A stretch of DNA of 64,000 nucleotides from the NCBI GenBank assembly GCA_965655095.1, contig OZ296648.1, positions 37,138,001 to 37,202,000 on the forward strand, given 5' to 3'. The position numbers and the translations under genes were made by a program. This document shows, one piece after another, positions 14,026 to 46,468 of this stretch. The DNA comes from Haplodiscus bocki. Taxonomy: Eukaryota. The notes under the pieces were generated by a model, which saw nothing but the letters and a program-made list of their open reading frames with translations, searched no databases and had not been told where the DNA came from. Numbering within the stretch: position 1 is the first letter of the stretch; each line of letters begins with the position of its first letter.

Positions 14026-14801
14026 GTTCTAGCGCTGGAAACAGGTTCCAAATACCGCAAGTTTCAAAATATCTATAAAATTGAAGTCGGAAATTTTTGT
14101 GATGACCCCCCACGCCAATCAGAAGAGCCCCGGAAACATAGGTTGTAGCTACACTCCTATCCTGAATAAGGCCTATGATTTTTTAACTTAAATCAACTGT
14201 GTAATAGTGGTGGCCAGAGTCCGCACATTTAGGAGTTATAACTTGACTTCAGAATGTAAAAAGATGGATATTTTCTATCTTTTTGTGGTACTCCTACATC
14301 AGAAGACTAGTCCATTGCAACAGATAGTCCTTTGACTGTGTCAATATATGGTAATGGTAGAAGGACACAAATGGCGACTGAGGACAGGATCGTACTGTAG
14401 GTTTGAGGGACAACTCGACTTAAACTGGTAAAAATGCTGGGAAAGTTTTTGTTTGGACTAATAACGCCAGCGCGGAAAAAAATTCGAGAAATTCTTTGCA
14501 CCATCCGGAAGCCCCTTTCAATCTACTAAATAAAACCCAAAACCAATTTGCTCTTATATTTCACGGAAAAGTTATCGGCGTTCATAAAATGGTTCAAAAA
14601 GCTGGAGAATGTCACGCAAAGAACAAAAACTTGCTCGAAGCCCCCAAACCCGTTTGCGATGTTGAAAGTCCTTTGAAGTGTTTTAATAGGTTTCACTTCG
14701 CTCACCTAAAAACAAAAAGTTGAGTAACACTATAGAACTTCGTAAAATTAAAGTTTTCAAAGTTGCAAGAAGAAATATTTTCAGCAGCTTCGTGCCACAG
14801 T

Positions 14802-14879
14802 AGTAGTAAAGGAAGGGGGGTTTGCTGCAATTTTTGACTCCCAAACCGAAAATTTTCTAAGTTAGAAAGGTCAAAGTAC
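14802..14879 (+). repeat. Left terminal inverted repeat of Polinton 1
   Basis: AGTAGTAAAGGAAGGGGGGTTTGCTGCAATTTTTGAC...GGTCAAAGTAC is the reverse complement of 46098-46174 with about 5 differences; weaker similarity extends ~40 bp further in. Confidence 0.95.
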
Positions 14880-15341
14880 CGAATCAACCGAAAGTGGAAT
14901 TTGTTGACCAAGCACACAGTAAGTAAACCAGTAAAAACAGCTGTCAAAAATCTTTCACAATGAAAATTTTCTACGTTGAACTCACTGTTGGAAACCGAAA
15001 CTGAACGAAACCAACAAAATTGATTGTCGACTGTCTTTTTAGACAATTTCTATCTGATAATTCCTTTTCTTGACTATTGTAACGAAAGCAAGAATCAACT
15101 TCTCGAACTATTAGCAGCCAACAAACTAGCTAGACATCTTCTCTTTTACTTTTATTTAAATTCATTATATCGGAAAACGGGAACAAGCAGAAAAAGTCGT
15201 GGTCCATTGAAAATGGAAAATGAAAATAAATAAACACAAAAATTTCGAACGTTTCCGGCATGTTTCGCGTGAAGCTGAGAACTGAACACTTCGGGACCAC
15301 GACTTTTGCGAGCTACACAATTGTTATTTTCAACCTGTACA

Positions 15342-16727
15342 ATGTTTCCCTGTTGTAAATGTGATAAATTGTTGAACTCAAAACGTGCTTTAAATGATCA
15401 CCAGCGAAAGAAGCACAATTTTGAAGCCATTGATCTGGCCCAAGTTTTCATATATGTTCATTGAGCGGTTTCCTTCACAAAATCTTGCAATTTATTGTGC
15501 CATCTAAAATACCAACACAAATCATCGGGCAACTATCGATGTTTCTCTTGTTTAACCTACTCTGGAAACCTCTCAATATTGACTCAACACCAAAAGTATC
15601 ATAGCGACGTATCTCTTGGTATCAACGTCTCCGATCTGCTCGATTTCATAACTGAAGCCGTTAATTCTAAATTCCAAATACATCGACTGAAGCTTGAGGG
15701 CTCTGATGGTTTGGAACGGTTCAACTACATTATTTCTCAGAAAGATAGAATCATTGCGTTTGTGAATTCTTTATTGAGCGTGACTCCAAACGTTAAAATC
15801 GGTCTAAGCATTGCAGTGAAACCACGAAAACCTTTGGAGAGCGAGGTAGTAGAAGCTTTTTTCAATTCGGCTGTGTCTCGAGTTTCTTCTCAGCTCACCG
15901 ATGTCGATTATATGCAGCATGTGGATGCCTTGATGACACAGTTGAAAGTCTTCGCCACAGGTGGCTCGGGATGGGTGGTGGGAACATTGACACGGTTGGA
16001 AATCAAAACAATCTCCTGTAGTAAAGTTAGTGGCGGCTCATATATAGAAACGCCAATTCTCAAACCACTGAATCTCTCGATTTTGAATACTTTTAATAAA
16101 CGTGATAACTTCTGCTTCTTGTATTGTGTTGTAGCTGCTCTATCCTCATTCATCGGAAGAGCTAATACTCCAAAGACCCATAAGAAAAACATGAACCGGC
16201 TCTCTTTCAACTCAAAGCTAATGCCGATGCCTCTGTCTACCATTCCTTCCTTTGAGAAACTGAATCGTTGCTCAATCAATGTCTATCAGATGGAGAACTC
16301 CAAGTTGGTGTCCGTGTATCACAGTAAAAATCGAAGAGGAAGACACCAAACTGATCTTCTCCGCCTAATGGATAACCAAAACAGTTATTAATCCCTGATT
16401 TAAAAATTCTCGAATCTTATTCATTTACTAACTAGGTCCAGAATGAAGCACGAAAAGGGACCAAAATCGCGCCTCTGCCGAAACTGCATTCAACCGATAA
16501 TTTGAAAGAACTTCAAAACCACGTTTCGTTTTGCAAAAGTAACGCACCACTTGAAATTCGAATGCCTCTTGAATCACCAACAATTGAGTTCGTCAATTGG
16601 GAGAAAACAGAAAAGTGTCGCTTTGTTGTTTATGCTGACCCTGAAGCAATCAATGTGGCTGCAGCATAATTTCCTCAAACTAAATGTCGGACACGAGAAA
16701 TTGAAAGGCAGTATGCAGCCAGCTTTG
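15342..16727 (+). pseudogene. Protein-primed family B DNA polymerase (pPolB), N-terminal part with three C2H2-type zinc fingers; truncated after Exo I
   Basis: MFPCCKCDKLLNSKRALNDHQRKKH and YRCFSCLTYSGNLSILTQHQKYH fingers; Polinton pPolB N-terminal motifs GSGWVV, GGSYIETP and NKRDNFCFLYCVVAAL; Exo I-like FVVYADPEAIN; frameshifts and stops. Confidence 0.85.
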
Positions 16728-17523
16728 AAACTTTTGTTCAAATTTTCAAAGTAGGGGTAAATAGCCGATCTCCTTACGAGAGCTCTCTCAATCGACAATT
16801 TCACACTCTGCGTAACCACTACTTTCCTCACAAAAAGAGAAGCTTTCTCAATATTTGCTTGCACTTTACTATCAAGTGCCTACGCTTCGTCATCGGTTCC
16901 CTTCAAAAAAAGCATCGTGTTATTGGGAGAACGGACAAGTCGTAAATGAAGTGTCACGCCGGGCACCAAAATTTTCTCGCAGTCAGAAAAGTCAATATGT
17001 AATGCTCCATAGAGCTCGGTCGCGCATTGTTTTAGGCGGTCAAAATCACCGTACAATTTATTGAACTGTTGATTTTGCTCACTTGTTTTTGCCAAGTAAT
17101 CTTATCCCTGACACCTTGTTCAAGTTTGCTTTGCGTCGGTGTTAGCTGTAAGTTCGGGTTCGATGAACGTAGCAGGAAAAAAAAACAGTTCGTGCTGTGT
17201 GAAACGAGTTTACCGTTCAAATACAAATCAACGTGAGAGAACAATGCGTGAAGCGTGTTGTTCGAAAAAATTATTGGATGCTCTTTGACTTTGGCGCAGG
17301 GTCTTCCCGTCCTCCGTGTAGAGGACAACTTTTACACTCAACAGAATACGATTCAAGTCAATCAAGTTTTTTGCTTCAGCTGTTGCAAAAAAGTCCAACT
17401 GGAGGTTTCTACATCCTACATGTGGGAAAACCTATTGATCGCAAGAACCTTCGTAATTGATTAAAATGTTGAGCTTCTCAAAAAATCTAGAGCGCTGTGA
17501 GTGACCGGGGTCGCAGTTTCCAT
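16726..17523 (-). pseudogene. Polinton major capsid protein (double jelly-roll), N-terminal half, truncated
   Basis: HSALDFFEK, NNTLHALFSHVDLYLNGKLVS, LYGALHIDFSDCEKILVPGVTLHLRLVRS and ASLFVRKVVV...ALVRRSAIYPY across several frames. Confidence 0.85.
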
Positions 17524-17609
17524 CGCATAACCAGAAAACGTCGTTGTTGTTGCTGCTGTTGTTGGGGCCAGACTGCTTGCTCTTTTCCTTTATTGTTGTG
17601 GTTTTCCTA

Positions 17610-18192
17610 TCAAGCAAACTGAAATTCAGACAGAATATCTGACCGACTTCTCTTGGCGGGACTTGATTTGGAAGAGATTCGTGTCGTTGTTGATTCGGGC
17701 AATGATGCTGCTGAAAAGTTCCGTCGCTTTCGATTTGTACTGCCGGTCCACTCCGGCCACCCACTCGAGCCATCCGGCCGCCTGACACCCGTCCGCCTCC
17801 GGAACGTACCGCCTGCTGCGGTGCAACGCTCACCCCGACCGAGCGGCCAGAAAAACTCGCCGCCGAAGTCTACAGTTTTCTTGGTAGCAGTCTCAGCAAC
17901 ATGTTTTAACATCTTGCCACTGGGTCTCTTCCCGCCGGCCAAAACCTGACCAATTTCAGGTACTGCCACTTCGAACAAATTTCTTCCAAGTTGTTTAGCT
18001 ACCGGCAGAATGTACAACTGGATTTGCCACTCTTCCCAGTCGCATGGCAAACGCGCCCAAGCCACCAGCACCCGCTCCCATTTGACGTGCCGGGCCGCTA
18101 AAGGAGACTTTTTGGTGAGTTGCACAATGATGATTGCGATAACTTCGTATTTGAGAATCACAAGGATCATCCCTCTTTTTGTGTGCGACCAC
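17610..18192 (-). pseudogene. Polinton basic core-like protein
   Basis: FSGPARQMGAGAGGLGAFAMRLGRVANP, then after a frameshift ILPVAKQLGRNLFEVAVPEIGQVLAGG. Gly-rich Q-x-G-x-G-x-GGLG motif and R/S-rich tail, located between mCP and MCP as in other Polintons. Confidence 0.6.
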
Positions 18193-18339
18193 CTAATTTA
18201 ACATTCATACACACGACTGATTTATGATAAAGATGATTAAACGGTTGGTACAACTGTTTGGTTCCGTGACTGATTGTCAAATGGCGTCGACTAGAGAGAA
18301 GAACCTTTTGGTTGGTTGCCTCTTGGCCAATCGTTCTCG

Positions 18340-19425
18340 TCAAGACGGCCTGCGCCTAAGTGCCAAAGTAATGCTGGTGCGCCCGCAGCTCAAAAAGGGC
18401 ATCCTTTGACCCAATTCATTGGCCAGAGTCAGAGTGATTGCCAGAAATTGTGATTTGTATATCCACTTCAGCTGCAAGTTTGAAAAGCTCGTGTGGTTCA
18501 CTTCTTTCCTTTGTCGTTGGTCCGTCCATGACAAGCTTTCAAGGGGAATGGAACGCAACAACGCTGTTTGTGAGTCACGCAGGATCTCATTTTGAACCAA
18601 GTCGCAATACAAAAACACTGTGTGACTTCCGGCTATCAAGTCAACCGGCCATTGACCTTTTACAACTGCGATCTCTTTGATTTTGCTGATCGCCTCGGCA
18701 GTTGCCATCAAAGTTCTTTTTTGACTCCTGTCTCTGCTCGCCGTGTTGGCAGTCTATGACTGTGGTCAAGCCCAGTGTGTTTTTCACATCCTGTCATCTT
18801 CCTCGGATAACCAAACCGTTTTGCTCCACATTCCCCCAAAACTTAACGTGAAGTTCTTGCATCGCCTCATCAACCTTCCACGAAATAGTTGTTGATCGCC
18901 ATGTTGCATCTGTAGGGTGCTGAGTTGTTTGCGGGAGTTTTTCATTGTCGTTTCTTGTCGCACTTCTGACTATTGCCTCCATGATATCATCAATGGATGA
19001 ACAGCAACCTGGCTTTATATAGCGTACTTCTGGAGCAGTGAACGTCAATGCTGGTTTCATTTCTCTAAACTGCCGCGGCACTCTCATTGAGACAACTCCT
19101 GGTCGTCTGCTGGGAAAAAATTTGCTCGGTGATTGATGTGGCGGCGGTGACTTTCAATTGGCGATCTGGCCCTCAGTTTTATTGCAAACCATTGCCGGCC
19201 AAGAAATCTCCAGCAAAGCCACCTGCCAATCCCCGGAGAGAGTCACAGGCGTGGGTAGGAGTGTTGTGAAACTTGACAGTTTGTTTCCTGGAAAAGTTTC
19301 CATGGACGCATTGGAAATGAAGTTTAGCGTGAATTCAGCACTGCCGGAAGCACTGATGTCTTGGGGAGATGAAAGTGTCTGGTTTTGACAGATTGATTTT
19401 ACGCGGCTTGGTAATTTCAGACACG
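18340..19425 (-). pseudogene. Polinton minor capsid protein (penton-like)
   Basis: FTLNFISNASMETFPGNKLSSFTTLLPTPVTLSGDWQVALLEISWP; YIKPGCCSSIDDIM; VFLYCDLVQNEILRDSQTALLRSIPL...GQRMPFLSCGRTSITLALR. Confidence 0.85.
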
Positions 19426-19449
19426 TGCGCTGCTCTTATTCGCTTGATC

Positions 19450-20610
19450 AATTTGTTGGTGACAAATTTCACAAGTTCAGGTTCATAAAATTTACCTTGT
19501 ATGATTTCGTTGTTTACGTCCTCATAAAAAACGTACGTCGGCGGATTTTTTGAAGGTATGTGTGAAATTGTAAGAAGCTCTTCAATGAACTGTATCCTGT
19601 AACCACATTGAAATGTTTCCATTTTCTTTCGTATGCGAACTCGATCGTCGACTTTGAACTTTGGTCATTGTGGTGGCACAGTGTTGCAAAGAGAGATTAA
19701 GTAAGGAACGTCTTTCTTGGACACTTCGATTGGAGCCAACTCAGTCATACGATTGATCCTATTGTTAATGATTGAGAAGAACTTTCCAAGTTGGTCAACG
19801 TATCGATTTGTGTCACGCTCATGTAAGTATTTGAAAACGATAGTTTTAAAGGTTCTTATGCATCTCTCAGCCACAACAGAATATGTCTCGCTTCTTGTTG
19901 AGTAAATTTTGATAACATTCTTTTTGCAAAATTCTACGAATTCTTTGGCAAACTTCTTACCTTGATCAGCCCGTATCTTTTCGGGATATTTTTTGGTTGC
20001 ACAATTTTTTGGAGCAATTCGTTGCTTATTAGTTGAGAAAATTTTTTTCAGCGCTACTGAACATGCTTGAGATGTCCTCGACTTCTCGGCCACGACCCAT
20101 AGAAAGCGACTCAAAGTGTCGACCGCCACAAAAAGATACCTAACTATCAAATTTTCGCTGGAAAGTTGCTGCATATCAGCCAAGTGAATAGACCAAACCT
20201 CATTCAGTCAATAACTGATAGCTTTACGTCTCGGAAAAAGTTTTTCGGGTAAGTTTAGACTCCGTATAAGTTTCACTCGAGTTCAAGGAGCGATTAACAT
20301 GTTTGAGCGAGCAGTTCGTTGACCCGGCTAAATCTACTTGAATACCAAACGTCGTTGCTTTTTCTGGCTTTGTATAGGCATCGTGAATCTTGGTATACGC
20401 AACTGCGAACGGATCATCATCTTCAATCATAACTCGACTTCTTGAAAATTTTGAACAGAGAAAGTTGTCATTATAATCAGTTTTGTTTTCCAACCCTGAA
20501 CAAGTGAAGTGAACCCAACCACACATATGGCACCACAACGTAGGGTTTTGTTTTGATCCTTTACCCAACCGCTTTCGGCAGCACCCGCAGAACCACTTCC
20601 TTGGCACCAT
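19450..20610 (-). pseudogene. Retroviral-like (rve) Polinton integrase with N-terminal PHD finger
   Basis: NEVWSIHLADM, RYLFVAVDTLSRF, RADQGKKF, SVVAERCIRTFK, PKFKVDDRVRI and QGKFYEPEL. N-terminal CGCC..WCHMCGWVHFTC..FLCSK is in frame with the integrase N-terminal domain. One frameshift (~20235) and two TGA stops. Confidence 0.88.
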
Positions 20611-20626
20611 TTGTCGAACAGTAGAT

Positions 20627-21312
20627 TCAGTGAGTCAACCAACTGCTGGCGGCTTCAGTGTCGAGTTTGAGACGTTTGCTTGGGGATTCTCCGTACACTG
20701 TCCGGTTTTGGATTCTAGAACTCGTCTGTCTAGCGTAGGTGTTTGCCAGCAGAAATTGCGGCAGAGCAAGTATCTCAACCAAATTGAGAAAGTGTTTGGG
20801 CAGCTGTTTAGTATTCACTTGGAGAGCGCGCTTAAAAAGTTAGTTATAACTATTGATGTATCTTGTTCATCGCGGAAAATGTCTTGATTTATCTCGTCAA
20901 CGATGACACGGTCGTTTTTTTGGATGGCCTTTAGATTTGTCTTGACCGTTGAATTTTTCCGCCAGCTATTCCCGATTGAAGTAGGCCGGCTAAAAGTTTG
21001 TCTGGTGTATTGTTCTGTTGATAGTCCGTGTTTACTTGTGACGTCGATGTTTCTTTACCTGGCTTCTTGTGATCCTGAAACCTTGAGTTTCAGATGATTT
21101 GAGCAATCAACGCTTGTTCCTTGTCGATTGGCGGATTCGTGGTCCCGTCAATTTCGCTGTTTCAAGAGGTTGATGCTGGTACCTGAGCGAGGAATTGCTG
21201 CTTCTGTTTTTCGCAAAAATCCAGACGTTTGCTTTCGTGTTGTGGTTGATTTTTCAGTAAGCAGTACTCGGCGCTAGTTATTAGAATAAACTCTTTAAAG
21301 CAACCGTTTGAT
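20627..21312 (-). pseudogene. Degraded Polinton ORF of unknown function
   Basis: Fragments FKEFILITSAEY, LLAGLLQSGIAGGKIQRSRQI and QLPKHFLNLVEILALPQFLLANTYA; occupies the usual slot upstream of the integrase. Confidence 0.5.
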
Positions 21313-21329
21313 GTCAAGGTAGGACTTTG

Positions 21330-21642
21330 AATGACTTAGCACCGACGGAAGAAAGAATTTCAATGAACGTAAACCTGTAGGAGAATCCAGCAGCTGACGC
21401 TTACGTTTAAGTGAAATGTTTTTCTTTGAACAGAGACTCGCTATAATGCTCTTTTCTCGTTAAAGTATTGATATTATTGCTTGCATTTTTTTGTCTAGTT
21501 TAACAATTCCTTTCATCACGTTTAACGTGCAGTCGCAGAATAATTTAATTACTTCTTCAGAGCAGTTCAAATTGAAACATCTTTTCAGTGTGAGAGGAAA
21601 CATATCGTACAAATCAACTGTATAAAAAGTTCGTATACTCAT
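21330..21642 (-). pseudogene. Small conserved Polinton protein
   Basis: VIKLFCDCTLNVMKGIVKL...SLCSKKNISLKRKRQLL resembles the I-C-E-C-x-LN-x-L-x-GNV...K-x-KR pattern of the Polinton gene following the ATPase. Confidence 0.55.
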
Positions 21643-22210
21643 TGCCTAAGTTCAGGTATAGTTGATTTGTTGAACAGTAGAACAGCGAAGGTTCGTCACG
21701 AGAACACTTGGAAGAACACCCCAGTGTTTTACTATTTCTCACGTCTAAATCAATCAACAAATGAGCGAACGGTCTGCGTGAGATTCAAGTCGATTAGTTT
21801 TGAACTTTTTGTCTGTTGAAATAGATTGTGTCTTAAAACCACCAAATGGATGTTGCGATGTCTACCGGCAATATCTAATGCCAGAGAAATTCTCTGCCTT
21901 CCGCCGCTTCTTCGAACAAATCATCGAGAACTAACAAGATTCATAACTTCTGCGCTTCAGCTTTTTCCAAAGACTTCCACTCTAATCCTTGAGTAAATTC
22001 AATATCAACAAGTGTGGACTCGCAATTAATAAAAATAGTTCCATAATGTTCTTGATAATGATTATAAAAGTAAATAATTTTGTCAAAGCTAGGTGAAAAT
22101 ATTTTTGCCTGATTGACAATCATACTCCCAATCCGTCTGGTTTTCCCCGATCCTGCAGGACCCACAACAGAAACAAAGCAGTGGGGTTGAATAGTTATTC
22201 GCTTGTTCAT
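21614..22210 (-). pseudogene. A32/FtsK-HerA family DNA packaging ATPase
   Basis: Walker A GPAGSGKT, Walker B ILLVLDD, AGRHRNIHL and PFAHLLIDL; one TGA stop, a frameshift and an internal deletion. Confidence 0.9.
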
Positions 22211-22686
22211 TAATTTGGAGTGGGTAAAATATGACCTAAACAAGCTGACAAGAGAGCTAGTATCCCTGATGCGAATCTATTGTCCGCCTCGCAAAATGTG
22301 AGGAAAGTTATAAAAAATGACAAAAATCAAAATAACTAAGTGATGAATTAATATTACGAGTAAAAACTGATCGAGCTTTAAATCTTAACCGCCGCAAAGC
22401 TTTACACAAATTGGTGGTCGCTCTTGATTATTTTCATCAAAAAACAAGGCGATCGATGTTACATTGAGAAACGTTTGCGAAATCAGGTTAATCCACCACC
22501 TGTTGTTCTTGATCTACACAAAGTTCACTGTAATAACCACTGGAACGTTTCGTTTCAACGTCTTGCATGGCAAACAAAATGTCCGCTGGAAACTTTGCCT
22601 GTGCTGGAGAAACATTTATTTTCCACTTCCAAAAAATTGAAATGGTTAGAACGGAAAGTTATCGAAATAATCAGGCTTCAAAAATT

Positions 22687-23052
22687 TCAAAACGTCCAAA
22701 AAAAAATTCCTGAAAGAGGACTCAATAGCATGCTGTTTTTGAAACACTTTTCAGTAGTTAAGGTATAAACATAACCAGGTCCCAAGTTGTTGACACTCCT
22801 AATATAACCAAAGGCATCATGAAAGATTGCATGCATTCGTAAAACTTTGGAAAACTGCAAGTAGTTGTGTAGAAGGCTGTCGCCTGCTTCAATATTGCCG
22901 CCCAAAGATGCCCGTGAATTAACATGATTCAAATCTATTGTTTTGTCTACATAGAGACATACTGCAAGAAAAACGTTTTTGGATGTTGTGTTTTTTGGGA
23001 ACCAGTATGTTACTTTCACAAAGTCTTCGCAAATGTCCTTCGAAGAAAACAT
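22687..23052 (-). CDS. 121-aa HD-motif protein, putative PLA2-like (copy 1; also intact at 24349, 32663, 34325, 35986, 37647, 39308)
   Basis: ATG-to-stop ORF with GGNIEAGD...LRMHAIFHDAFGY...GPGYVY...SPLSGI(L/F)FW; the functional call is inference. Confidence 0.55.
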   Translation of the reverse strand: MFSSKDICEDFVKVTYWFPKNTTSKNVFLAVCLYVDKTIDLNHVNSRASLGGNIEAGDSLLHNYLQFSKVLRMHAIFHDAFGYIRSVNNLGPGYVYTLTTEKCFKNSMLLSPLSGIFFWTF

Positions 23053-23129
23053 TTAAGTAAGCAAGTTTGAATTAGGAGAAGCGTCTGTCTGAGAACAAAA
23101 CTTTTACAGAAATGATGTATCAATAATTG

Positions 23130-24270
23130 TTAAACAGAAAAAAGCTGCAAAGCGTAGTTGTTGCCTTCTTGAGCCGTCGAACCGATGATTCGAAGTGGTT
23201 GAGTCATACATCCGAAGCACGTGCATTGAGAATTTGTTACCCCTAAATCAAAATCTAATGACCGGCTGTGCTCAGTTACGTGAAATCGCCCAAACTCTTT
23301 CTGAAGAAGATCAATGTATGACAATATGCTGTCTTTGAAAGGTGCATCTGAACTTTCAAGCTCGAGCAGACGTTGAAAAAGAAACAATGCTTTCTCTGAC
23401 CCAACGGATGCTCCCAGTGAATTGTTTTTCGTACTCCCACACACTTTTGAATTTGCAACCAAGTCCTTCTGTGGTCTTCTGATTCATGAAGGATTGCATC
23501 TACTTGCCTCTGACTGCAATGGAACTGGCGGCTGATTTGTTGTTTGTTTCTGCTCGGAGAAAGTTTTCCGGATGAGACTGTCATCAATTTTACATGCGCA
23601 TTGTTTGTTGTCGACAGAACTTGAAAAATAGTCTGCTCCAGAAAAGTTTCCGCTTCAGCACAAGCAGGAAGATGAAGCAGAGTATGATGATGGTTCGAGG
23701 GCATCGTTTGGCAAATTTCTTCGAATTGCCCACACCTGAACTCATTCTACAGGTTTTCTCGGCTTTAGTACTGAGCGTTGTGTGAGCACACGAGAATTGG
23801 TAGAGCATTGCACAGACTGGGAGGCATCGACTCAGGAAACGTATTTCGTGTGCTTTCAGAAAGCTTCTCAATAGTGGTAGTTTCGTCCGTAAGAAACAGG
23901 AGCAACCAAAAGTTCGACGGAACTTCTCTGAAAACAGTTGTCATTTGTTTCAACCAGCGAATTTTTTCAGCAACTGATTGTGGTATTAAATCTTTCAAAA
24001 ATGAAGCGTCTCACAGTTGTTATCTCACCCACCTCTTAATAGGGAATTTTCCATTCGGTCTCTAGGAGTTTTCCATCAAAATGGAAGAAAAGCATACTTG
24101 GCACATTCACGATCTTTGATAAGTCCCTGTTTGCAGCTGGTCCACGTAAGTGTGCCAAGTGTGCTAGCAACTGTAATGTAAGAACGCGATACTGCTGTTA
24201 CCGTTTTTCCTAGGTTCACTTATCGAATGCTCGAGAAAAAAATTAGTTTTACGACGTTGGTTATTCATGA
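23130..24270 (-). pseudogene. Degraded longer Polinton accessory ORF within the repeat unit (77-aa, 142/149-aa and 110-aa fragments)
   Basis: The 77-aa and 149-aa ORFs are in the same frame, separated by 13 codons including a further stop. The disruptions recur in each unit. No recognisable domain. Confidence 0.5.
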
Positions 24271-27200
24271 TTTGGAAGGTTAGTTTAGCACCAATAAACT
24301 GAAATGGTTAGAACGGAAAGTTATCGAAATAATCAGGCTTCAAAAAATTCAAAACGTCCAAAATAAAATTCCTGAAAGAGGACTCAATAGCATGCTGTTT
24401 TTGAAATACTTTTCAGTAGTTAAGGTATAAACATAACCAGGTCCCACGTTGTTGACACTCCTAATATAACCAAAGGCATCATGAAAGATTGCATGCATTC
24501 GTAAAACTTTGGAAAACTGCAAGTAGTTGTGTAGAAGGCTGTCGCCTGCTTCAATATTGCCGCCCAAAGATGCCCGTGAATTAACTTGATTCAAATCTAT
24601 TGTTTTGTCTACATAGAGACATACTGCAAGAAAAACGTTTTTGGATGTTGTGTTTTTTGGGAACCAGTATGTTACTTTCACAAAGTCTTCGCAAATGTCC
24701 TTCGAAGAAAACATTTAAGTAAGCAAGTTTGAATTAGGAGAAGCGTCCGTCTGAGAACAAAACTTTTACAGAAATGATGTATCAAAAATTGTTAAACAGA
24801 AAAAAGCTGCAAAGCGTAGTTGTTGCCTTCTTGAGCCGTCGAACCGATGATTTGAAGTGGTTGAGTCATACATCCGAAGCACGTGCAATGAGAATTTGTT
24901 ACCCCTAAATCAAAATCCAATGTCCGGCTGTGCTCAGTTACGTGAAATCGCTCAAACTCTTTCTGAAGAAGATCAATGTATGACAATATGCTGTCTTTGA
25001 AAGGTGCATCTGAACTTTCAAGCTCGAGCAGACGTTGAAAAAGAAACAATGCTTTCTCTGACCCAACGGATGCTCCCAGTGAATTGTTTTTCGTACTCCC
25101 ACACACTTTTGAATTTGCAACCAAGTCCTTCTGTGGTCTTCTGATTCATGAAGGATTGCATCTACTTGCCTCTGACTGCAATGGAACTGGCGGCTGATTT
25201 GTTGTTTGTTTCTGCTCGGAGAAAGTTTTCCGGATGAGACTGTCATCAATTTTACATGCGCATTGTTTGTTGTCGACAGAACTTGAAAAATAGTCTGCTC
25301 CAGAAAAGTTTCCGCTTCAGCACAAGCAGGAAGATAAAGCAGAGTATGATGATGGTTCGAGGGCATCGTTTGGCAAATTTCTTCCAATTGCCCACACCTG
25401 AACTCATTCTACAGGTTTTCTCGGCTTTAGTACTGAGCGTTGTGTGAGCACACGAGAATTGGTAGAGCATTGCACAGACTGGGAGGCATCGACTCAGGAA
25501 ACGTATTTCGTGTGCTTTCAGAAAGCTTCTCAATAGTGGTAGTTTCGTCCGTAAGAAACAGGAGCAACCAAAAGTTCGACGGAACTTCTCTGAAAACAGT
25601 TGTCATTTGTTTCAACCAGCGAATTTTTTCAGCAACTGATTGTGGTATTAAATCTTTCAAAAATGAAGCGTCTCACAGTTGTTATCTCACCCACCTCTTA
25701 ATAGGGAATTTTCCATTCGGTCTCTAGGAGTTTTCCATCAAAATGGAAGAAAAGCATACTTGGCACATTCACGATCTTTGATAAGTCCCCGTTTGCAGCT
25801 GGTCCACGTAAGTGTGCCAAGTGTGCGAGCAACTGTAATGTAAGAACGCGATAGTGCTGTTACCGTTTTTCCTAGGTTCACTTATCGAATGCTCGAGAAA
25901 AAAATTAGTTTTACGACGTTGGTGATTCATGATTTGGAAGGTTAGTTTAGCACCAATAAATTGAAATGGTTAGAACGGAAAGTTATCGAAATAATCAGGC
26001 TTCAAAAATTTCAAAACGTCCAAAATAAAATTCCTGAAAGAGGACTCAATAGCATGCTGTTTTTGAAATACTTTTCAGTAGTTAAGGTATAAACATAATC
26101 AGGTCCCACGTTGTTGACACTCCTAATATAACCAAAGGCATCATGAAAGATTGCATGCATTCGTAAAACTTTGGAAAACTGCAAGTAGTTGTGTAGAAGG
26201 CTGTCGCCTGCTTCAATATTGCCGCCCAAAGATGCCCGTGAATTAGCTTGATTCAAATCTATTGTTTTTGTCTACATAGAGACATACTGCAAGAAAAACG
26301 TTTTTGGATGTTGTGTTTTTTGGGAACCAGTATGTTACTTTCACAAAGTCTTCGCAAATGTCCTTCGAAGAAAACATTTAAGTAAGCAAGTTTGAATTAG
26401 GAGAAGCGTCTGTCTGAGAACAAAACTTTTACAGAAATGATGTATCAATAATTGTTAAACAGAAAAAAGCTGCAAAGCGTAGTTGTTGCCTTCTTGAGCC
26501 GTCGAACCGATGATTTGAAGTGGTTGAGTCATACATCCGAAGCACGTGCATTGAGAATTTGTTACCCCTAAATCAAAATCCAATGCCCGGCTGTGCTCAG
26601 TTACGTGAAATCGCCCAAACTCTTTCTGAAGAAGATCAATGTATGACAATATGCTGTCTTTGAAAGGTGCATCTGAACTTTCAAGCTCGAGCAGACGTTG
26701 AAAAAGAAACAATGCTTTCTCTGACCCAACGGATGCTCCCAGTGAATTGTTTTTCGTACTCCCACACACTTTTGAATTTGCAACCAAGTCCTTCTGTGGT
26801 CTTCTGATTCATGAAGGATTGCATCTACTTGCCTCTGACTGCAATGGAACTGGCGGCTGATTTGTTGTTTGTTTCTGCTCGGAGAAAGTTTTCCGGATGA
26901 GACTGTCATCAATTTTACATGCGCATTGTTTGTTGTCGACAGAACTTGAAAAATAGTCTGCTCCAGAAAAGTTTCCGCTTCAGCACAAGCAGGAAGATAA
27001 AGCAGAGTATGATGATGGTTCGAGGGCATCGTTTGGCAAATTTCTTCCAATTGCCCACACCTGAACTCATTCTACAGGTTTTCTCGGCTTTAGTACTGAG
27101 CGTTGTGTGAGCACACGAGAATTGGTAGAGCATTGCACAGACTGGGAGGCATCGACTCAGGAAACGTATTTCGTGTGCTTTCAGAAAGCTTCTCAATAGT

Positions 27201-30200
27201 GGTAGTTTCGTCCGTAAGAAACAGGAGCAACCAAAAGTTCGACGGAACTTCTCTGAAAACAGTTGTCATTTGTTTCAACCAGCGAATTTTTTCAGCAACT
27301 GATTGTGGTATTAAATCTTTCAAAAATGAAGCGTCTCACAGTTGTTATCTCACCCACCTCTTAATAGGGAATTTTCCATTCGGTCTCTAGGAGTTTTCCA
27401 TCAAAATGGAAGAAAAGCATACTTGGCACATTCACGATCTTTGATAAGTCCCCGTTTGCAGCTGGTCCACGTAAGTGTGCCAAGTGTGCGAGCAACTGTA
27501 ATGTAAGAACGCGATAGTGCTGTTACCGTTTTTCCTAGGTTCACTTATCGAATGCTCGAGAAAAAAATTAGTTTTACGACGTTGGTGATTCATGATTTGG
27601 AAGGTTAGTTTAGCACCAATAAATTGAAATGGTTAGAACGGAAAGTTATCGAAATAATCAGGCTTCAAAAATTTCAAAACGTCCAAAATAAAATTCCTGA
27701 AAGAGGACTCAATAGCATGCTGTTTTTGAAATACTTTTCAGTAGTTAAGGTATAAACATAACCAGGTCCCACGTTGTTGACACTCCTAATATAACCAAAG
27801 GCATCATGAAAGATTGCATGCATTCGTAAAACTTTGGAAAACTGCAAGTAGTTGTGTAGAAGGCTGTCGCCTGCTTCAATATTGCCGCCCAAAGATGCCC
27901 GTGAATTAGCTTGATTCAAATCTATTGTTTTTGTCTACATAGAGACATACTGCAAGAAAAACGTTTTTGGATGTTGTGTTTTTTGGGAACCAGTATGTTA
28001 CTTTCACAAAGTCTTCGCAAATGTCCTTCGAAGAAAACATTTAAGTAAGCAAGTTTGAATTAGGAGAAGCGTCTGTCTGAGAACAAAACTTTTACAGAAA
28101 TGATGTATCAATAATTGTTAAACAGAAAAAAGCTGCAAAGCGTAGTTGTTGCCTTCTTGAGCCGTCGAACCGATGATTTGAAGTGGTTGAGTCATACATC
28201 CGAAGCACGTGCATTGAGAATTTGTTACCCCTAAATCAAAATCCAATGCCCGGCTGTGCTCAGTTACGTGAAATCGCCCAAACTCTTTCTGAAGAAGATC
28301 AATGTATGACAATATGCTGTCTTTGAAAGGTGCATCTGAACTTTCAAGCTCGAGCAGACGTTGAAAAAGAAACAATGCTTTCTCTGACCCAACGGATGCT
28401 CCCAGTGAATTGTTTTTCGTACTCCCACACACTTTTGAATTTGCAACCAAGTCCTTCTGTGGTCTTCTGATTCATGAAGGATTGCATCTACTTGCCTCTG
28501 ACTGCAATGGAACTGGCGGCTGATTTGTTGTTTGTTTCTGCTCGGAGAAAGTTTTCCGGATGAGACTGTCATCAATTTTACATGCGCATTGTTTGTTGTC
28601 GACAGAACTTGAAAAATAGTCTGCTCCAGAAAAGTTTCCGCTTCAGCACAAGCAGGAAGATAAAGCAGAGTATGATGATGGTTCGAGGGCATCGTTTGGC
28701 AAATTTCTTCCAATTGCCCACACCTGAACTCATTCTACAGGTTTTCTCGGCTTTAGTACTGAGCGTTGTGTGAGCACACGAGAATTGGTAGAGCATTGCA
28801 CAGACTGGGAGGCATCGACTCAGGAAACGTATTTCGTGTGCTTTCAGAAAGCTTCTCAATAGTGGTAGTTTCGTCCGTAAGAAACAGGAGCAACCAAAAG
28901 TTCGACGGAACTTCTCTGAAAACAGTTGTCATTTGTTTCAACCAGCGAATTTTTTCAGCAACTGATTGTGGTATTAAATCTTTCAAAAATGAAGCGTCTC
29001 ACAGTTGTTATCTCACCCACCTCTTAATAGGGAATTTTCCATTCGGTCTCTAGGAGTTTTCCATCAAAATGGAAGAAAAGCATACTTGGCACATTCACGA
29101 TCTTTGATAAGTCCCCGTTTGCAGCTGGTCCACGTAAGTGTGCCAAGTGTGCGAGCAACTGTAATGTAAGAACGCGATAGTGCTGTTACCGTTTTTCCTA
29201 GGTTCACTTATCGAATGCTCGAGAAAAAAATTAGTTTTACGACGTTGGTGATTCATGATTTGGAAGGTTAGTTTAGCACCAATAAATTGAAATGGTTAGA
29301 ACGGAAAGTTATCGAAATAATCAGGCTTCAAAAATTTCAAAACGTCCAAAATAAAATTCCTGAAAGAGGACTCATTAGCATGCTGTTTTTGAAATACTTT
29401 TCAGTAGTTAAGGTATAAACATAACCAGGTCCCACGTTGTTGACACTCCTAATATAACCAAAGGCATCATGAAAGATTGCATGCATTCGTAAAACTTTGG
29501 AAAACTGCAAGTAGTTGTGTAGAAGGCTGTCGCCTGCTTCAATATTGCCGCCCAAAGATGCCCGTGAATTAGCTTGATTCAAATCTATTGTTTTTGTCTA
29601 CATAGAGACATACTGCAAGAAAAACGTTTTTGGATGTTGTGTTTTTTGGGAACCAGTATGTTACTTTCACAAAGTCTTCGCAAATGTCCTTCGAAGAAAA
29701 CATTTAAGTAAGCAAGTTTGAATTAGGAGAAGCGTCTGTCTGAGAACAAAACTTTTACAGAAATGATGTATCAAAAATTGTTAAACAGAAAAAAGCTGCA
29801 AAGCGTAGTTGTTGCCTTCTTGAGCCGTCGAACCGCTGATTTGAAGTGGTTGAGTCATACATCCGAAGCACGTGCATTGAGAATTTGTTACCCCTAAATC
29901 AAAATCCAATGCCCGGCTGTGCTCAGTTACGTGAAATCGCCCAAACTCTTTCTGAAGAAGATCAATGTATGACAATATGCTGTCTTTGAAAGGTGCATCT
30001 GAACTTTCAAGCTCGAGCAGACGTTGAAAAAGAAACAATGCTTTCTCTGACCCAACGGATGCTCCCAGTGAATTGTTTTTCGTACTCCCACACACTTTTG
30101 AATTTGCAACCAAGTCCTTCTGTGGTCTTCTGATTCATGAAGGATTGCATCTACTTGCCTCTGACTGCAATGGAACTGGCGGCTGATTTGTTGTTTGTTT

Positions 30201-33200
30201 CTGCTCGGAGAAAGTTTTCCGGATGAGACTGTCATCAATTTTACATGCGCATTGTTTGTTGTCGACAGAACTTGAAAAATAGTCTGCTCCAGAAAAGTTT
30301 CCGCTTCAGCACAAGCAGGAAGATAAAGCAGAGTATGATGATGGTTCGAGGGCATCGTTTGGCAAATTTCTTCCAATTGCCCACACCTGAACTCATTCTA
30401 CAGGTTTTCTCGGCTTTAGTACTGAGCGTTGTGTGAGCACACGAGAATTGGTAGAGCATTGCACAGACTGGGAGGCATCGACTCAGGAAACGTATTTCGT
30501 GTGCTTTCAGAAAGCTTCTCAATAGTGGTAGTTTCGTCCGTAAGAAACAGGAGCAACCAAAAGTTCGACGGAACTTCTCTGAAAACAGTTGTCATTTGTT
30601 TCAACCAGCGAATTTTTTCAGCAACTGATTGTGGTATTAAATCTTTCAAAAATGAAGCGTCTCACAGTTGTTATCTCACCCACCTCTTAATAGGGAATTT
30701 TCCATTCGGTCTCTAGGAGTTTTCCATCAAAATGGAAGAAAAGCATACTTGGCATATTCACGATCTTTGATAAGTCCCTGTTTGCAGCTGGTCCACGTAA
30801 GTGTGCCAAGTGTGCGAGCAACTGTAATGTAAGAACGCGATAGTGCTGTTACCGTTTTTCCTAGGTTCACTTATCGAATGCTCGAGAAAAAAAATAGTTT
30901 TACGACGTTGCTGATTCATGATTTGGAAGGTTAGTTTAGCACCAATAAATTGAAATGGTTAGAACGGAAAGTTATCGAAATAATCAGGCTTCAAAAATTT
31001 CAAAACGTCCAAAATAAAATTGCTGAAAGAGGACTCAATAGCATGCTGTTTTTGAAATACTTTTCAGTAGTTAAGGTATAAACATAACCAGGTCCCACGT
31101 TGTTGACACTCCTAATATAACCAAAGGCATCATGAAAGATTGCATGCATTCGTAAAACTTTGGAAAACTGCAAGTAGTTGTGTAGAAGGCTGTCGCCTGC
31201 TTCAATATTGCCGCCCAAAGATGCCCGTGAATTAGCTTGATTCAAATCTATTGTTTTTGTCTACATAGAGACATACTGCAAGAAAAACGTTTTTGGATGT
31301 TGTGTTTTTTGGGAACCAGTATGTTACTTTCACAAAGTCTTCGCAAATGTCCTTCGAAGAAAACATTTAAGTAAGCAAGTTTGAATTAGGAGAAGCGTCT
31401 GTCTGAGAACAAAACTTTTACAGAAATGATGTATCAATAATTGTTAAACAGAAAAAAGCTGCAAAGCGTAGTTGTTGCCTTCTTGAGCCGTCGAACCGAT
31501 GATTTGAAGTGGTTGAGTCATACATCCGAAGCACGTGCATTGAGAATTTGTTACCCCTAAATCAAAATCCAATGTCCGGCTGTGCTCAGTTACGTGAAAT
31601 CGCCCAAACTCTTTCTGAAGAAGATCAATGTGTGACAATATGCTGTCTTTGAAAGGTGCATCTGAACTTTCAAGCTCGAGCAGACGTTGAAAAAGAAACA
31701 ATGCTTTCTCTGACCCAACGGATGCTCCCAGTGAATTGTTTTTCGTACTCCCACACACTTTTGAATTTGCAACCAAGTCCTTCTGTGGTCTTCTGATTCA
31801 TGAAGGATTGCATCTACTTGCCTCTGACTGCAATGGAACTGGCGGCTGATTTGTTGTTTGTTTCTGCTCGGAGAAAGTTTTCCGGATGAGACTGTCATCA
31901 ATTTTACATGCGCATTGTTTGTTGTCGACAGAACTTGAAAAATAGTCTGCTCCAGAAAAGTTTCCGCTTCAGCACAAGCAGGAAGACAAAGCAGAGTATG
32001 ATGATGGTTCGAGGGCATCGTTTGGCAAATTTCTTCCAATTGCCCACACCTGAACTCATTCTACAGGTTTTCTCGGCTTTAGTACTGAGCGTTGTGTGAG
32101 CACACGAGAATTGGTAGAGCATTGCACAGACTGGGAGGCATCGACTCAGGAAACGTATTTCGTGTGCTTTCAGAAAGCTTCTCAATAGTGGTAGTTTCGT
32201 CCGTAAGAAACAGGAGCAACCAAAAGTTCGACGGAACTTCTCTGAAAACAGTTGTCATTTGTTTCAACCAGCGAATTTTTTCAGCAACTGATTGTGGTAT
32301 TAAATCTTTCAAAAATGAAGCGTCTCACAGTTGTTATCTCACCCACCTCTTAATAGGGAATTTTCCATTCGGTCTCTAGGAGTTTTCCATCAAAATGGAA
32401 GAAAAGCATACTTGGCACATTCACGATCTTTGATAAGTCCCCGTTTGCAGCTGGTCCACGTAAGTGTGCCAAGTGTGCTAGCAACTGTAATGTAAGAACG
32501 CGATACTGCTGTTACCGTTTTCCCTAGGTTCACTTATCGAATGCTCGAGAAAAAAATTAGTTTTACGACGTTGGTGATTCATGATTTGGAAGGTTAGTTT
32601 AGCACCAATAAATTGAAATGGTTAGAACGGAAAGTTATCGAAATAATCAGGCTTCAAAAATTTCAAAACGTCCAAAATAAAATTCCTGAAAGAGAACTCA
32701 AAAGCATGCTGTTTTTGAAATACTTTTCAGTAGTTAAGGTATAAACATAACCAGGTCCCACGTTGTTGACACTCCTAATATAACCAAAGGCATCATGAAA
32801 GATTGCATGCATTCGTAAAACTTTGGAAAACTGCAGGTAGTTGTGTAGAAGGCTGTCGCCTGCTTCAATATTGCCGCCCAAAGATGCCCGTGAATTAACT
32901 TGATTCAAATCTATTGTTTTGTCTACATAGAGACATACTGCAAGAAAAACGTTTTTGGATGTTGTGTTTTTTGGGAACCAGTATGTTACTTTCACAAAGT
33001 CTTCGCAAATGTCCTTCGAAGAAAACATTTAAGTAAGCAAGTTTGAATTAGGAGAAGCGTCTGTCTGAGAACAAAACTTTTACAGAAATGATGTATCAAT
33101 AATTGTTAAACAGAAAAAAGCTGCAAAGCGTAGTTGTTGCCTTCTTGAGCCGTCGGACCGATGATTTGAAGTGGTTGAGTCATACATCCGAAGCACGTGC

Positions 33201-36200
33201 ATTGAGAATTTGTTACCCCTAAATCAAAATCCAATGCCCGGCTGTGCTCAGTTACGTGAAATCGCCCAAACTCTTTCTGAAGAAGATCAATGTATGACAA
33301 TATGCTGTCTTTGAAAGGTGCATCTGAACTTTCAAGCTCGAGCAGACGTTGAAAAAGAAACAATGCTTTCTCTGACCCAACGGATGCTCCCAGTGAATTG
33401 TTTTTCGTACTCCCACACACTTTTGAATTTGCAACCAAGTCCTTCTGTGGTCTTCTGATTCATGAAGGATTGCATCTACTTGCCTCTGACTGCAATGGAA
33501 CTGGCGGCTGATTTGTTGTTTGTTTCTGCTCGGAGAAAGTTTTCCGGATGAGACTGTCATCAATTTTACATGCGCATTGTTTGTTGTCGACAGAACTTGA
33601 AAAATAGTCTGCTCCAGAAAAGTTGCCGCTTCAGCACAAGCAGGAAGACAAAGCAGAGTATGATGATGGTTCGAGGGCATCGTTTGGCAAATTTCTTCCA
33701 ATTGCCCACACCTGAACTCATTCTACAGGTTTTCTCGGCTTCAGTACTGAGCGTTGTGTGAGCACACGAGAATTGGTAGAGCATTGCACAGACTGGGAGG
33801 CATCGACTCAGGAAACGTATTTCGTGTGCTTTCAGAAAGCTTCTCAATAGTGGTAGTTTCGTCCGTAAGAAACAGGAGCAACCAAAAGTTCGACGGAACT
33901 TCTCTGAAAACAGTTGTCATTTGTTTCAACCAGCGAATTTTTTCAGCAACTGATTGTGGTATTAAATCTTTCAAAAATGAAGCGTCTCACAGTTGTTATC
34001 TCACCCACCTCTTAATAGGGAATTTTCCATTCGGTCTCTAGGAGTTTTCCATCAAAATGGAAGAAAAGCATACTTGGCACATTCACGATCTTTGATAAGT
34101 CCCCGTTTGCAGCTGGTCCACGTAAGTGTGCCAAGTGTGCTAGCAACTGTAATGTAAGAACGCGATACTGCTGTTACCGTTTTTCCTAGGTTCACTTATC
34201 GAATGCTCGAGAAAAAAATTAGTTTTACGACGTTGCTGATTCATGATTTGGAAGGTTATTTTAGCACCAATAAATTGAAATGGTTAGAACGGAAAGTTAT
34301 CGAAATAATCAGGCTTCAAAAATTTCAAAACGTCCAAAATAAAATTCCTGAAAGAGGACTCAATAGCATGCTGTTTTTGAAATACTTTTCAGTAGTTAAG
34401 GTATAAACATAACCAGGTCCCACGTTGTTGACACTCCTAATATAGCCAAAGGCATCATGAAAGATTGCATGCATTCGTAAAACTTTGGAAAACTGCAAGT
34501 AGTTGTGTAGAAGGCTGTCGCCTGCTTCAATATTGCCGCCCAAAGATGCCCGTGAATTAACTTGATTCAAATCTATTGTTTTGTCTACATAGAGACATAC
34601 TGCAAGAAAAACGTTTTTGGATGTTGTGTTTTTTGGGAACCAGTATGTTACTTTCACAAAGTCTTCGCAAATGTCCTTCGAAGAAAACATTTAAGTAAGC
34701 AAGTTTGAATTAGGAGAAGCGTCTGTCTGAGAACAAAACTTTTACAGAAATGATGTATCAATAATTGTTAAACAGAAAAAAGCTGCAAAGCGTAGTTGTT
34801 GCCTTCTTGAGCCGTCGAACCGATGATTCGAAGTGGTTGAGTCATACATCCGAAGCACGTGCATTGAGAATTTGTTACCCCTACATCAAAATCTAATGAC
34901 CGGCTGTGCTCAGTTACGTGAAATCGCCCAAACTCTTTCTGAAGAAGATCAATGTATGACAATATGCTGTCTTTGAAAGGTGCATCTGAACTTTCAAGCT
35001 CGAGCAGACGTTGAAAAAGAAACAATGCTTTCTCTGACCCAACGGATGCTCCCAGTGAATTGTTTTTCGTACTCCCACACACTTTTGAATTTGCAACCAA
35101 GACCTTCTGTGGTCTTCTGATTCATGAAGGATTGCATCTACTTGCCTCTGACTGCAATGGAACTGGCGGCTGATTTGTTGTTTGTTTCTGCTCGGAGAAA
35201 GTTTTCCGGATGAGACTGTCATCAATTTTACATGCGCATTGTTTGTTGTCGACAGAACTTGAAAAATAGTCTGCTCCAGAAAAGTTGCCGCTTCAGCACA
35301 AGCAGGAAGACAAAGCAGAGTATGATGATGGTTCGAGGGCATCGTTTGGCAAATTTCTTCCAATTGCCCACACCTGAACTCATTCTACAGGTTTTCTCGG
35401 CTTCAGTACTGAGCGTTGTGTGAGCACACGAGAATTGGTAGAGCATTGCACAGACTGGGAGGCATCGACTCAGGAAACGTATTTCGTGTGCTTTCAGAAA
35501 GCTTCTCAATAGTGGTAGTTTCGTCCGTAAGAAACAGGAGCAACCAAAAGTTCGACGGAACTTCTCTGAAAACAGTTGTCATTTGTTTCAACCAGCGAAT
35601 TTTTTCAGCAACTGATTGTGGTATTAAATCTTTCAAAAATGAAGCGTCTCACAGTTGTTATCTCACCCACCTCTTAATAGGGAATTTTCCATTCGGTCTC
35701 TAGGAGTTTTCCATCAAAATGGAAGAAAAGCATACTTGGCACATTCACGATCTTTGATAAGTCCCCGTTTGCAGCTGGTCCACTAAGTGTGCCAAGTGTG
35801 CTAGCAACTGTAATGTAAGAACGCGATACTGCTGTTACCGTTTTTCCTAGGTTCACTTATCGAATGCTCGAGAAAAAAATTAGTTTTACGACGTTGGTGA
35901 TTCATGATTTGGAAGGTTATTTTAGCACCAATAAATTGAAATGGTTAGAACGGAAAGTTATCGAAATAATCAGGCTTCAAAAATTTCAAAACGTCCAAAA
36001 TAAAATTCCTGAAAGAGGACTCAATAGCATGCTGTTTTTGAAATACTTTTCAGTAGTTAAGGTATAAACATAACCAGGTCCCACGTTGTTGACACTCCTA
36101 ATATAACCAAAGGCATCATGAAAGATTGCATGCATTCGTAAAACTTTGGAAAACTGCAAGTAGTTGTGTAGAAGGCTGTCGCCTGCTTCAATATTGCCGC

Positions 36201-45200: not shown

Positions 45201-46097
45201 GCATTGTTTGTTGTCGACAGAACTTGAAAAATAGTCTGCTCCAGAAAAGTTTCCGCTTCAGCACAAGCAGGAAGATAAAGCAGAGTATGATGATGGTTCA
45301 AGGGCATCGTTTGGCAAATTTCTTCCAATTGCCCACACCTGAACTCATTCTACAGGTTTTCTCGGCTTTAGTATTGAGCGTTGTGTGAGCACACGAGAAT
45401 TGGTAGAGCATTGCACAGACTGGGAGGCATCGACTCAGGAAACGTATTTCGTGTGCTTTCAGAAAGCTTCTCATTAGTGGTAGTTTCGTCCGTAAGAAAC
45501 AGGAGCAAGCAAAAGTTCGACGGAACTTCTCTGAAAACAGTTGTCATTTGTTTCAACCAGCGATTTTTTTCAGCAACTGATTGTGGTATTAAATCTTTCA
45601 AAAATGAAGCGTCTCACAGTTGTTATCTCACCCACCTCTTAATAGGGAATTTTCCATTCGGTCTCTAGGAGTTTTCCATCAAAATGGAAGAAAAGCATAC
45701 TTGGCACATTCACGATCTTTGATAAGTCCCTGTTTGCAGCTGGTCCACGTAAGTGTGCCAAGTGTGCTAGCAACTGTAATGTAAGAACGCGATACTGCTG
45801 TTACCGTTTTTCCTAGGTTCACGTATCGAATGCTCGAGAAAAAAATTAGTTTTACGACGTTGGTGATTCATGATTTGGAAGGTTAGTTTAGCATCATTTA
45901 GTCTTTTGTCAGGGGGTCCAATGCTTTATTTCCACTCTCTGAATCGATAAATTCTCGAAAGTGAAATATTTCACTCTTTGTAGAACCAGTTGCCACAGTT
46001 TGATTGATGAACAAATAAGTGTCAAAAGAATCGAAGCGATGTGTCAGAAACGACATTCAGTGTACTCAGTCAACAAAATTCAGCTTCAGATGGTTTT

Positions 46098-46174
46098 GTA
46101 CTTTGACCTTTTTGACTTGGAAAATTTTCGGTTTGGAAGTCAAAAATTGCAGCAAACCCCCTTCCTTTACTACT
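46098..46174 (-). repeat. Right terminal inverted repeat of Polinton 1
   Basis: ...GCAGCAAACCCCCTTCCTTTACTACT followed by TSD CACAGT. Confidence 0.95.
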
Positions 46175-46468
46175 CACAGTTTTGACGAAAAGGTTATTTT
46201 AATTTCTGTTCACCGTGCTCGCATTCAGTATTGTTCCTCAAATGAATAGTAATAGTTTTGCACAATCGGACTAATAATATTCAGCATTTCTATTTTATAT
46301 GTTTGCTCCGCTTAACATGTAAAAAAGTAACATAAAATTACTATTCATTCAATGAAAAAGCTAAATGCCAGCATTATGTGAACAGGAAACAGCTTCTACG
46401 TGGGCATGATGATTATTTCATGATTTTGTTCTTCATAAAAAAGGACTTGTGCCTGTGGTGGTACGCAC

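Follow-up and report, generated by a model that had tools for sequence, protein, structure and literature searches.

The window, a 64,000-nucleotide stretch, holds a decayed Polinton/Maverick element (14802..46174, no strand assigned) with AGTAGT...ACTACT ends, TIRs (left 14802..14924, plus strand; right 46053..46174, minus strand) and an internal tandem array. It is bracketed by two copies of the 6-bp TSD CACAGT (14796..14801 and 46175..46180, both plus strand), and the element thus shows the (AGT)2-ended TIRs and 6-bp TSD that, with gene order, serve as Polinton criteria in passages of PMC8097293. Of the protein-primed PolB gene a 5' remnant survives (15465..16727, plus strand), most of the gene having been removed from this copy by an internal deletion of ~4.3 kb at ~16727, and a piece of the A32-like packaging ATPase is found at 21941..22276 (minus strand). 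Copies of the same family fill in the picture, with PolB in L161 matching DNA_pol_B_2 (E 3.5e-12), Pox_A32 over the Pfam cut-off for the ATPase, and rve over the cut-off in these copies as well as in the window piece. A candidate cysteine protease matches Peptidase_C48 in L071 slightly under the cut-off (E 8e-4) and has no Pfam match in L163. Candidate major and minor jelly-roll capsid ORFs fit the Polinton layout by size and order, and Pfam and PDB sequence searches with them returned zero matches. At 22629..45893 (minus strand) a 1663-bp segment from inside the Polinton is repeated in tandem ~14 times. The array units are 98.6-99.3% identical, though the window Polinton itself is ~10% diverged from its relatives, and the array is a recent, satellite-like, head-to-tail amplification of the decayed element.

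The integrase gene lies on the minus strand. An ORF at 20224..20634, with a Met at 20610, encodes a PHD-like C4HC3 finger (20446..20589) of the form C-x2-C-x15-C-x2-C-x-W-x-H-x2-C-x14-C-x2-F, in which the C4-x3-H spacing is short and ligand 8 is Phe, followed by a helical N-terminal region (20224..20610 from the Met). As originally noted, this frame stays open from the finger into the N-terminal region of the integrase (AYTKPEKATTFG...SSETYTESKLTRKTF), and the frameshift near 20235, where the ORF leaves the gene frame, is likewise present. The catalytic core piece (19668..20207) scores above the Pfam cut-off as rve (E 1.2e-9) and is flanked by in-frame stops at 20210-20208 and 19667-19665; where the first catalytic Asp is expected, the gene encodes His. 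The C-terminal region (19464..19664) runs to GKFYEPELVKF with no chromodomain after it, and a stop codon directly after ELVKFV is absent from the window copy. The N-terminal ORF had zero Pfam matches. The next gene downstream, preserved in three pieces (18340..19435, minus strand), is presumably the minor capsid gene, a putative assignment made partly by a motif that we take to be typical of it and with no library match. Its place also follows the Polinton gene order (PMC8097293). The close adjoining of the two genes that had been claimed is seen both in the window, where GKFYEPELVKF ends at ~19464 and the following frame starts from 19435, and in the unbroken copy L029, where the integrase stop lies ~90 nt upstream of the next Met.

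Since the window copy is broken, the fusion of finger and integrase was examined in natural copies, with a DNA search giving at least 43 matches (40 of 199 candidates scored) and 30 loci analysed. The N-terminal part and the start of the core share a common frame in 23 of the 29 other copies, and in six of the 29 the finger motif and core start lie in one frame with no stop between them, as the predicted fusion demands. The genome has several further subfamilies, of which many keep a frame of 408-431 aa open, and the gene order is constant. Of 28 other copies scored for ligand 8, 27 have Cys and one has a stop (one further copy is unscored), so the Phe, correctly flagged at the outset as a weak point, is evidently decay private to the window copy. 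The second caveat, a C4-to-His spacing one residue short, was equally accurate and describes a clade trait, since all 135 stored proteins with either spacing (near-duplicates included) have C4-x3-H. When 20 finger proteins were aligned, the ligands were invariant wherever shown. All 25 full-length finger relatives have only 5-17 residues beyond GxFYExEL, and therefore a chromodomain cannot fit; none of 20 finger integrases scanned had a Chromo match at E<=1, and three control relatives scored over the Chromo cut-off, so that the predicted lack of a chromodomain extends to intact relatives. The stored protein P0001 and the L021 frame are identical, and the homologue set may largely stem from this one host species.

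Divergence between subfamilies gave pS 0.80 and pN 0.27 for the finger and pS 0.80 and pN 0.28 for the core (80 between-subfamily pairs from 14 natural ORFs, the pairs being non-independent), values by which the finger is evidently under purifying selection and equals the core in conservation. That the Cys-rich frame arose by chance, or that a small gene of its own became joined here to a decayed integrase, would account for the several breaks in the window copy and for its N-terminal ORF without a Pfam match, and is ruled out by unbroken fusions across many subfamilies and the purifying selection acting on them. The fusion is real, though the window copy itself is decayed.

The identity of the finger was approached by sequence, language-model and fold searches. 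Across 18 aligned natural copies the eight ligands, in Cys4-His-Cys3 order, are invariant, as is a Trp two positions before the His. The best PDB sequence match is the PHD of PHF23 (E 6.6e-5), and the gap left by the short Cys4-His spacing is visible in PHD alignments, including that with PHF23. The top ESM Atlas matches were PHD/PHD_Pygo clusters at 0.90. For the cross-braced two-zinc fold expected of a PHD, a finger model of low confidence (pLDDT 58) was compared with known structures: all 44 Foldseek matches listed were PHD-finger proteins, none reaching E 0.001, and the best VIA fold match was the BPTF PHD (Z 3.8), with FYVE domains also at Z 2-3; a full-length integrase model (pLDDT 62) matched only retroviral integrases and is uninformative on the finger. 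No RING domain appeared among the listed fold matches, an absence that in itself excludes nothing. The view that the domain is PHD-like and not a RING is nevertheless borne out by its C4HC3 order and by the first, though weakly scored, rank of PHDs in all three kinds of search. Comparison with the Pfam PHD family had a mixed outcome: matches spanned the whole PHD model in 12 of 20 proteins (E 0.017-0.87) and PHD was top-ranked, but no integrase scanned reached the PF00628 cut-off (best E 0.003-0.005, 17.4 bits against 24). We describe the domain as PHD-like, a variant with short spacing, and do not assign it to the Pfam PHD family.

The finger-bearing integrases were then placed among their relatives. 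In a FastTree analysis of 122 full-length integrases (cluster duplicates, partial and split matches excluded; rows P0252 and P0304 counted as reader-less; sample biased to the closest matches), 24 finger-family rows formed one clade. Among the 98 finger-less rows, a pattern match identified a chromodomain-like tail in 47; a further 9 end in a different long tail, in most cases chromodomain-like to the eye, and 42 have neither, a count that may include truncated tails. A second tree, built with IQ-TREE on the catalytic core alone of 48 hand-picked rows, placed a finger clade of 26 rows (support 100/99) inside a 38-row clade (100/99), the remaining 12 rows of which have neither finger nor chromodomain. 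Since the finger clade nests among reader-less integrases, the chromodomain was most likely gone before the finger arrived, and since 42 of the 98 finger-less relatives also have neither domain, loss and gain would be separate events.

This order of events bears on the original prediction of a swap of chromatin readers, in which a C-terminal chromodomain was traded for an H3K4-reading PHD and integration thereby redirected to active chromatin. Finger and chromodomain were not found together in any protein examined, the nearest solved structures are H3K4me3 readers, and the divider Trp is invariant, all of which would agree with such a trade. A single exchange is, however, contradicted by the closest finger-less relatives (the 12 rows of the 38-row clade), which already lack the chromodomain; chromodomain loss is frequent across the tree, and crude proxies from insertion flanks (below) give no sign of targeting, be it to active chromatin or, as first proposed, to gene bodies. 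We consider the swap improbable. Chromodomain-bearing integrases are described for adintoviruses in parts of PMC8502044 and bioRxiv 10.1101/2021.11.30.470311. Such Polinton/Maverick (adintovirus) integrases share with the finger clade the rve core, the C-terminal GxFYExEL, the pre-capsid position, AGT-type termini and a 6-bp TSD, whereas the finger clade has no chromodomain, an N-terminal PHD-like finger and, in its earliest branches, a 2A-like leader. A role of the chromodomain in the choice of Polinton insertion sites is only assumed.

This leader also bears on the source of the finger. In the two earliest branches (P0395/P0402 and P0046/P0374/P0378/P0393; a further row among them, P0411, is N-truncated) the finger is directly preceded by a leader of hydrophobic character, which closes with G[IV]ExNPGP or a near variant of it, and a 2A-like leader of ~40-60 aa is present in L031-L041 and in P0374, P0378, P0395, P0400 and P0404. 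The motif lacks the canonical Asp and fits the expanded 2A core (D/G/C/N)(V/I)ExNPGP given in passages of bioRxiv 10.64898/2026.09.24.754024; 2A activity depends on upstream context, according to part of PMC3708506. It is absent from a 19-row crown that includes the window family (100/94 in the IQ-TREE analysis), for which a single gain and a single loss would be the simplest reading. Sections of PMC3708506 describe a PHD that sits between a 2A-like stretch and the APE domain of Crack/CR1 ORF2p, the same order of leader, ExNPGP, PHD and catalytic protein; the Polinton version differs from it in having a DDE integrase and not APE-RT, no canonical Asp, and a finger one residue short.

A comparable finger also exists in a retroelement of the same genome. 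A multi-copy, single-ORF non-LTR element with RVT_1 (L093-L099; 1096-aa frame in L093), which we take to belong to a CRE-like clade, carries an N-terminal finger with the identical short spacing; the last two ligands of this finger deviate, and the element lacks a 2A-like motif. In L060, a relative of this element with 33% identity downstream, the PHD has normal spacing. Scored against a profile of the integrase finger, the short-spaced RT element reached 28.9 bits, compared with 0-23 for seven other transposon PHDs, -1 to 15 for four host-type PHDs, 22 for PHF23 and 46 for P0419, whose context is unknown; outside integrases, the retroelement family and P0419 were the only cases in which the short spacing appeared. 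Because a 2A-like motif precedes the finger and the genome's retroelement has a finger of the same spacing, the finger was probably captured from a retroelement. This reading is weakened by the missing 2A-like motif and deviating last ligands of the short-spaced element, by the 22 bits of PHF23, a cellular PHD, and by the search for a protein with both marks: none of the matches listed (best 120 of 129) combines a 2A-like motif with a short-spaced finger outside integrases, and no longer protein (747-2130 aa) shares the 2A-plus-finger region of P0136, which is weak evidence. Viral contigs scanned with the finger alignment gave 32 pattern matches, zero of them confirmed.

The finger could instead derive from a host chromatin gene of the PHF13/PHF23/SET3 type, with the 2A-like leader gained separately, or the retroelement finger could itself be Polinton-derived. 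PHF23 is the best PDB match, and the R-P-L-F-Y/W-C of the early branches resembles the R-P-M-I-E-C of PHF13/23. However, host-type PHDs in this genome score below retroelement PHDs, the short spacing appeared only with the retroelement family and P0419, and a 2A-like sequence directly before a PHD is a retroelement layout described in parts of PMC3708506, leaving a host origin unlikely and capture from a retroelement the reading we retain.

What the finger does was assessed against the features of PHD histone readers listed in passages of PMC3241642, namely an acidic cluster, an aromatic cage of 2-4 residues and a divider Trp. The acidic cluster before C1 is absent, the N-termini being rich in Lys/Arg, and for that reason the finger is, judged by its sequence, not an H3K4me0 reader. 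Of an H3K4me3 pocket, the divider Trp is present throughout; a Trp or Tyr two positions before C1 is found in 21 of 21 crown proteins and replaced by Leu in all eight 2A-bearing early proteins; no acid follows C3, and the position of the PHF13/PHF23 Met is S/T/P/C/L. Mapping cage positions onto the finger is partly our assumption, as is the correspondence of the crown aromatic to a cage position in TAF3-type PHDs. On this mapping, a methyl-lysine pocket would be present only in part. PHDs of PHF13, PHF23, SET3, BPTF, TAF3 and ING share with the finger the C4HC3 order and the Trp two before His and provide its best sequence and fold matches. The finger differs from these H3K4me3 readers in its shortened C4-to-His distance, in lacking both a Met/Tyr cage residue ahead of C3 and the acidic residue of the Arg2 pocket, and in being net basic. 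Co-modelling of the finger, two Zn and residues 2-36 of the H3 tail of the host gave an uninformative score of 0.01.

Insertion flanks were compared at 23 of the 30 loci (7 had no terminus by pattern; 3 of those kept are one duplicated locus) with 40 control stretches from 20 arbitrary sites. Flank CpG o/e was 0.95 against 0.90 (p 0.30) and the longest ORF was equal (p 0.94), both crude proxies for targeting, the CpG one weak given that the window has little CpG depletion; GC was 0.378 against 0.361 (p 0.025, with three tests made). The 23 flanks had no target sequence in common.

The finger may alternatively have a non-histone job, as a basic zinc module for viral DNA ends or for target DNA/RNA, as a partner-binding module, or in stabilising the N-terminus. 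It is net basic (+2 to +7) in 29 of 29 proteins, with few acidic reader residues, and the earliest branches lack the N-terminal aromatic; in addition, parts of PMC2836005 report that the usual N-terminal zinc finger is missing in Polinton integrases, and parts of PMC3241642 that some PHDs bind non-histone proteins. Basic charge was rejected as an argument against histone binding, being weak given the overlapping range of host PHDs (-8 to +5). Against a non-histone job, sister integrases exist without any finger, one host PHD that has cage-type residues is likewise basic (+5), and the crown aromatic sits at what we take to be the TAF3-type cage position. Such a job is plausible if short of probable. 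We rank it close behind the role of an accessory chromatin tether; that the finger reads methylated H3K4 is a tentative suggestion, less likely than not.

Taken together, finger-clade integrases are proteins of ~380-440 aa with a PHD-like finger at the N-terminus and no chromodomain. On balance we favour an account in which a Polinton integrase clade acquired its finger by capture from a retroelement after losing the chromodomain, and uses it as an accessory chromatin tether. An ancestral integrase would likely have lost its chromodomain first; the finger would have been captured once from a non-LTR retroelement, along with the 2A-like leader; the crown that includes the window family would later have dropped the leader; and the finger may since have tethered the integrase to chromatin. 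A longer chain, running from 2A-plus-PHD capture through ribosome skipping that freed the integrase, 2A loss and the building of a methyl-lysine pocket to H3K4me-aimed insertion, seems rather unlikely. If true, a Polinton lineage aimed at H3K4-methylated chromatin would have diversified into numerous subfamilies within a single animal genome.

Transposons have commonly captured PHDs, among them CR1, Rehavkus and Chlamys (passages of PMC8557442), and Pygo-type fusions in cnidarians are described in part of bioRxiv 10.1101/2021.11.30.470311. A close enzyme-level parallel in the sections of PMC2836005 on Ginger1-9_HM is a Ginger1 transposase, in which a DDE enzyme of the integrase type is likewise joined to a PHD. 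That PHD, however, stands at the C-terminus next to Ulp1, and the element is a cut-and-paste transposon, while in the Polinton it is N-terminal and in a virus-like element. The literature searched (outside Repbase, subscription papers and an 823-fusion TE-chromatin supplement) held no report of a PHD-Polinton integrase fusion, nor any of 2A in Polintons, and the passages of the 2A survey bioRxiv 10.64898/2026.09.24.754024 mention neither Polintons nor DNA viruses. The PHD-like finger integrase architecture is real, selected and apparently unreported. Integrases with a chromodomain, with none and with a PHD offer a natural comparison against chromatin maps, for which the many finger subfamilies of this genome and their close reader-less relatives form the basis, and the 2A-like leader would be an uncommon trace of genes passing from retrotransposons into an integrating DNA virus.

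The genome is rich in transposon PHDs. In a Penelope-like RT/GIY-YIG frame (L062:4721-6427; G000:C11 near 89.899 Mb) a PHD, over the Pfam cut-off, lies directly before YVDD; in the Chlamys elements of algae, PHDs inserted elsewhere have been described (part of PMC8557442). Abundant CR1/L2-like elements (L053-L059) have a PHD-bearing ORF1 of 246-282 aa. Near-identical finger-plus-integrase fragments spaced ~3.6-7 kb apart (L089-L092; G000:C6:2.108-2.131 Mb) are another tandem amplification of a Polinton piece. A full-span copy of ~14.8 kb (L162/L163; G000:C4:54917200-54931957), whose integrase frame (L029) has an in-frame internal duplication of ~63 aa, sits inside an older, ~74% identical Polinton relative. 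Just beyond the window Polinton, at 48385-49146, G/C-run inverted arms accompany a 28-bp tandem repeat, together possibly the end of another transposon.
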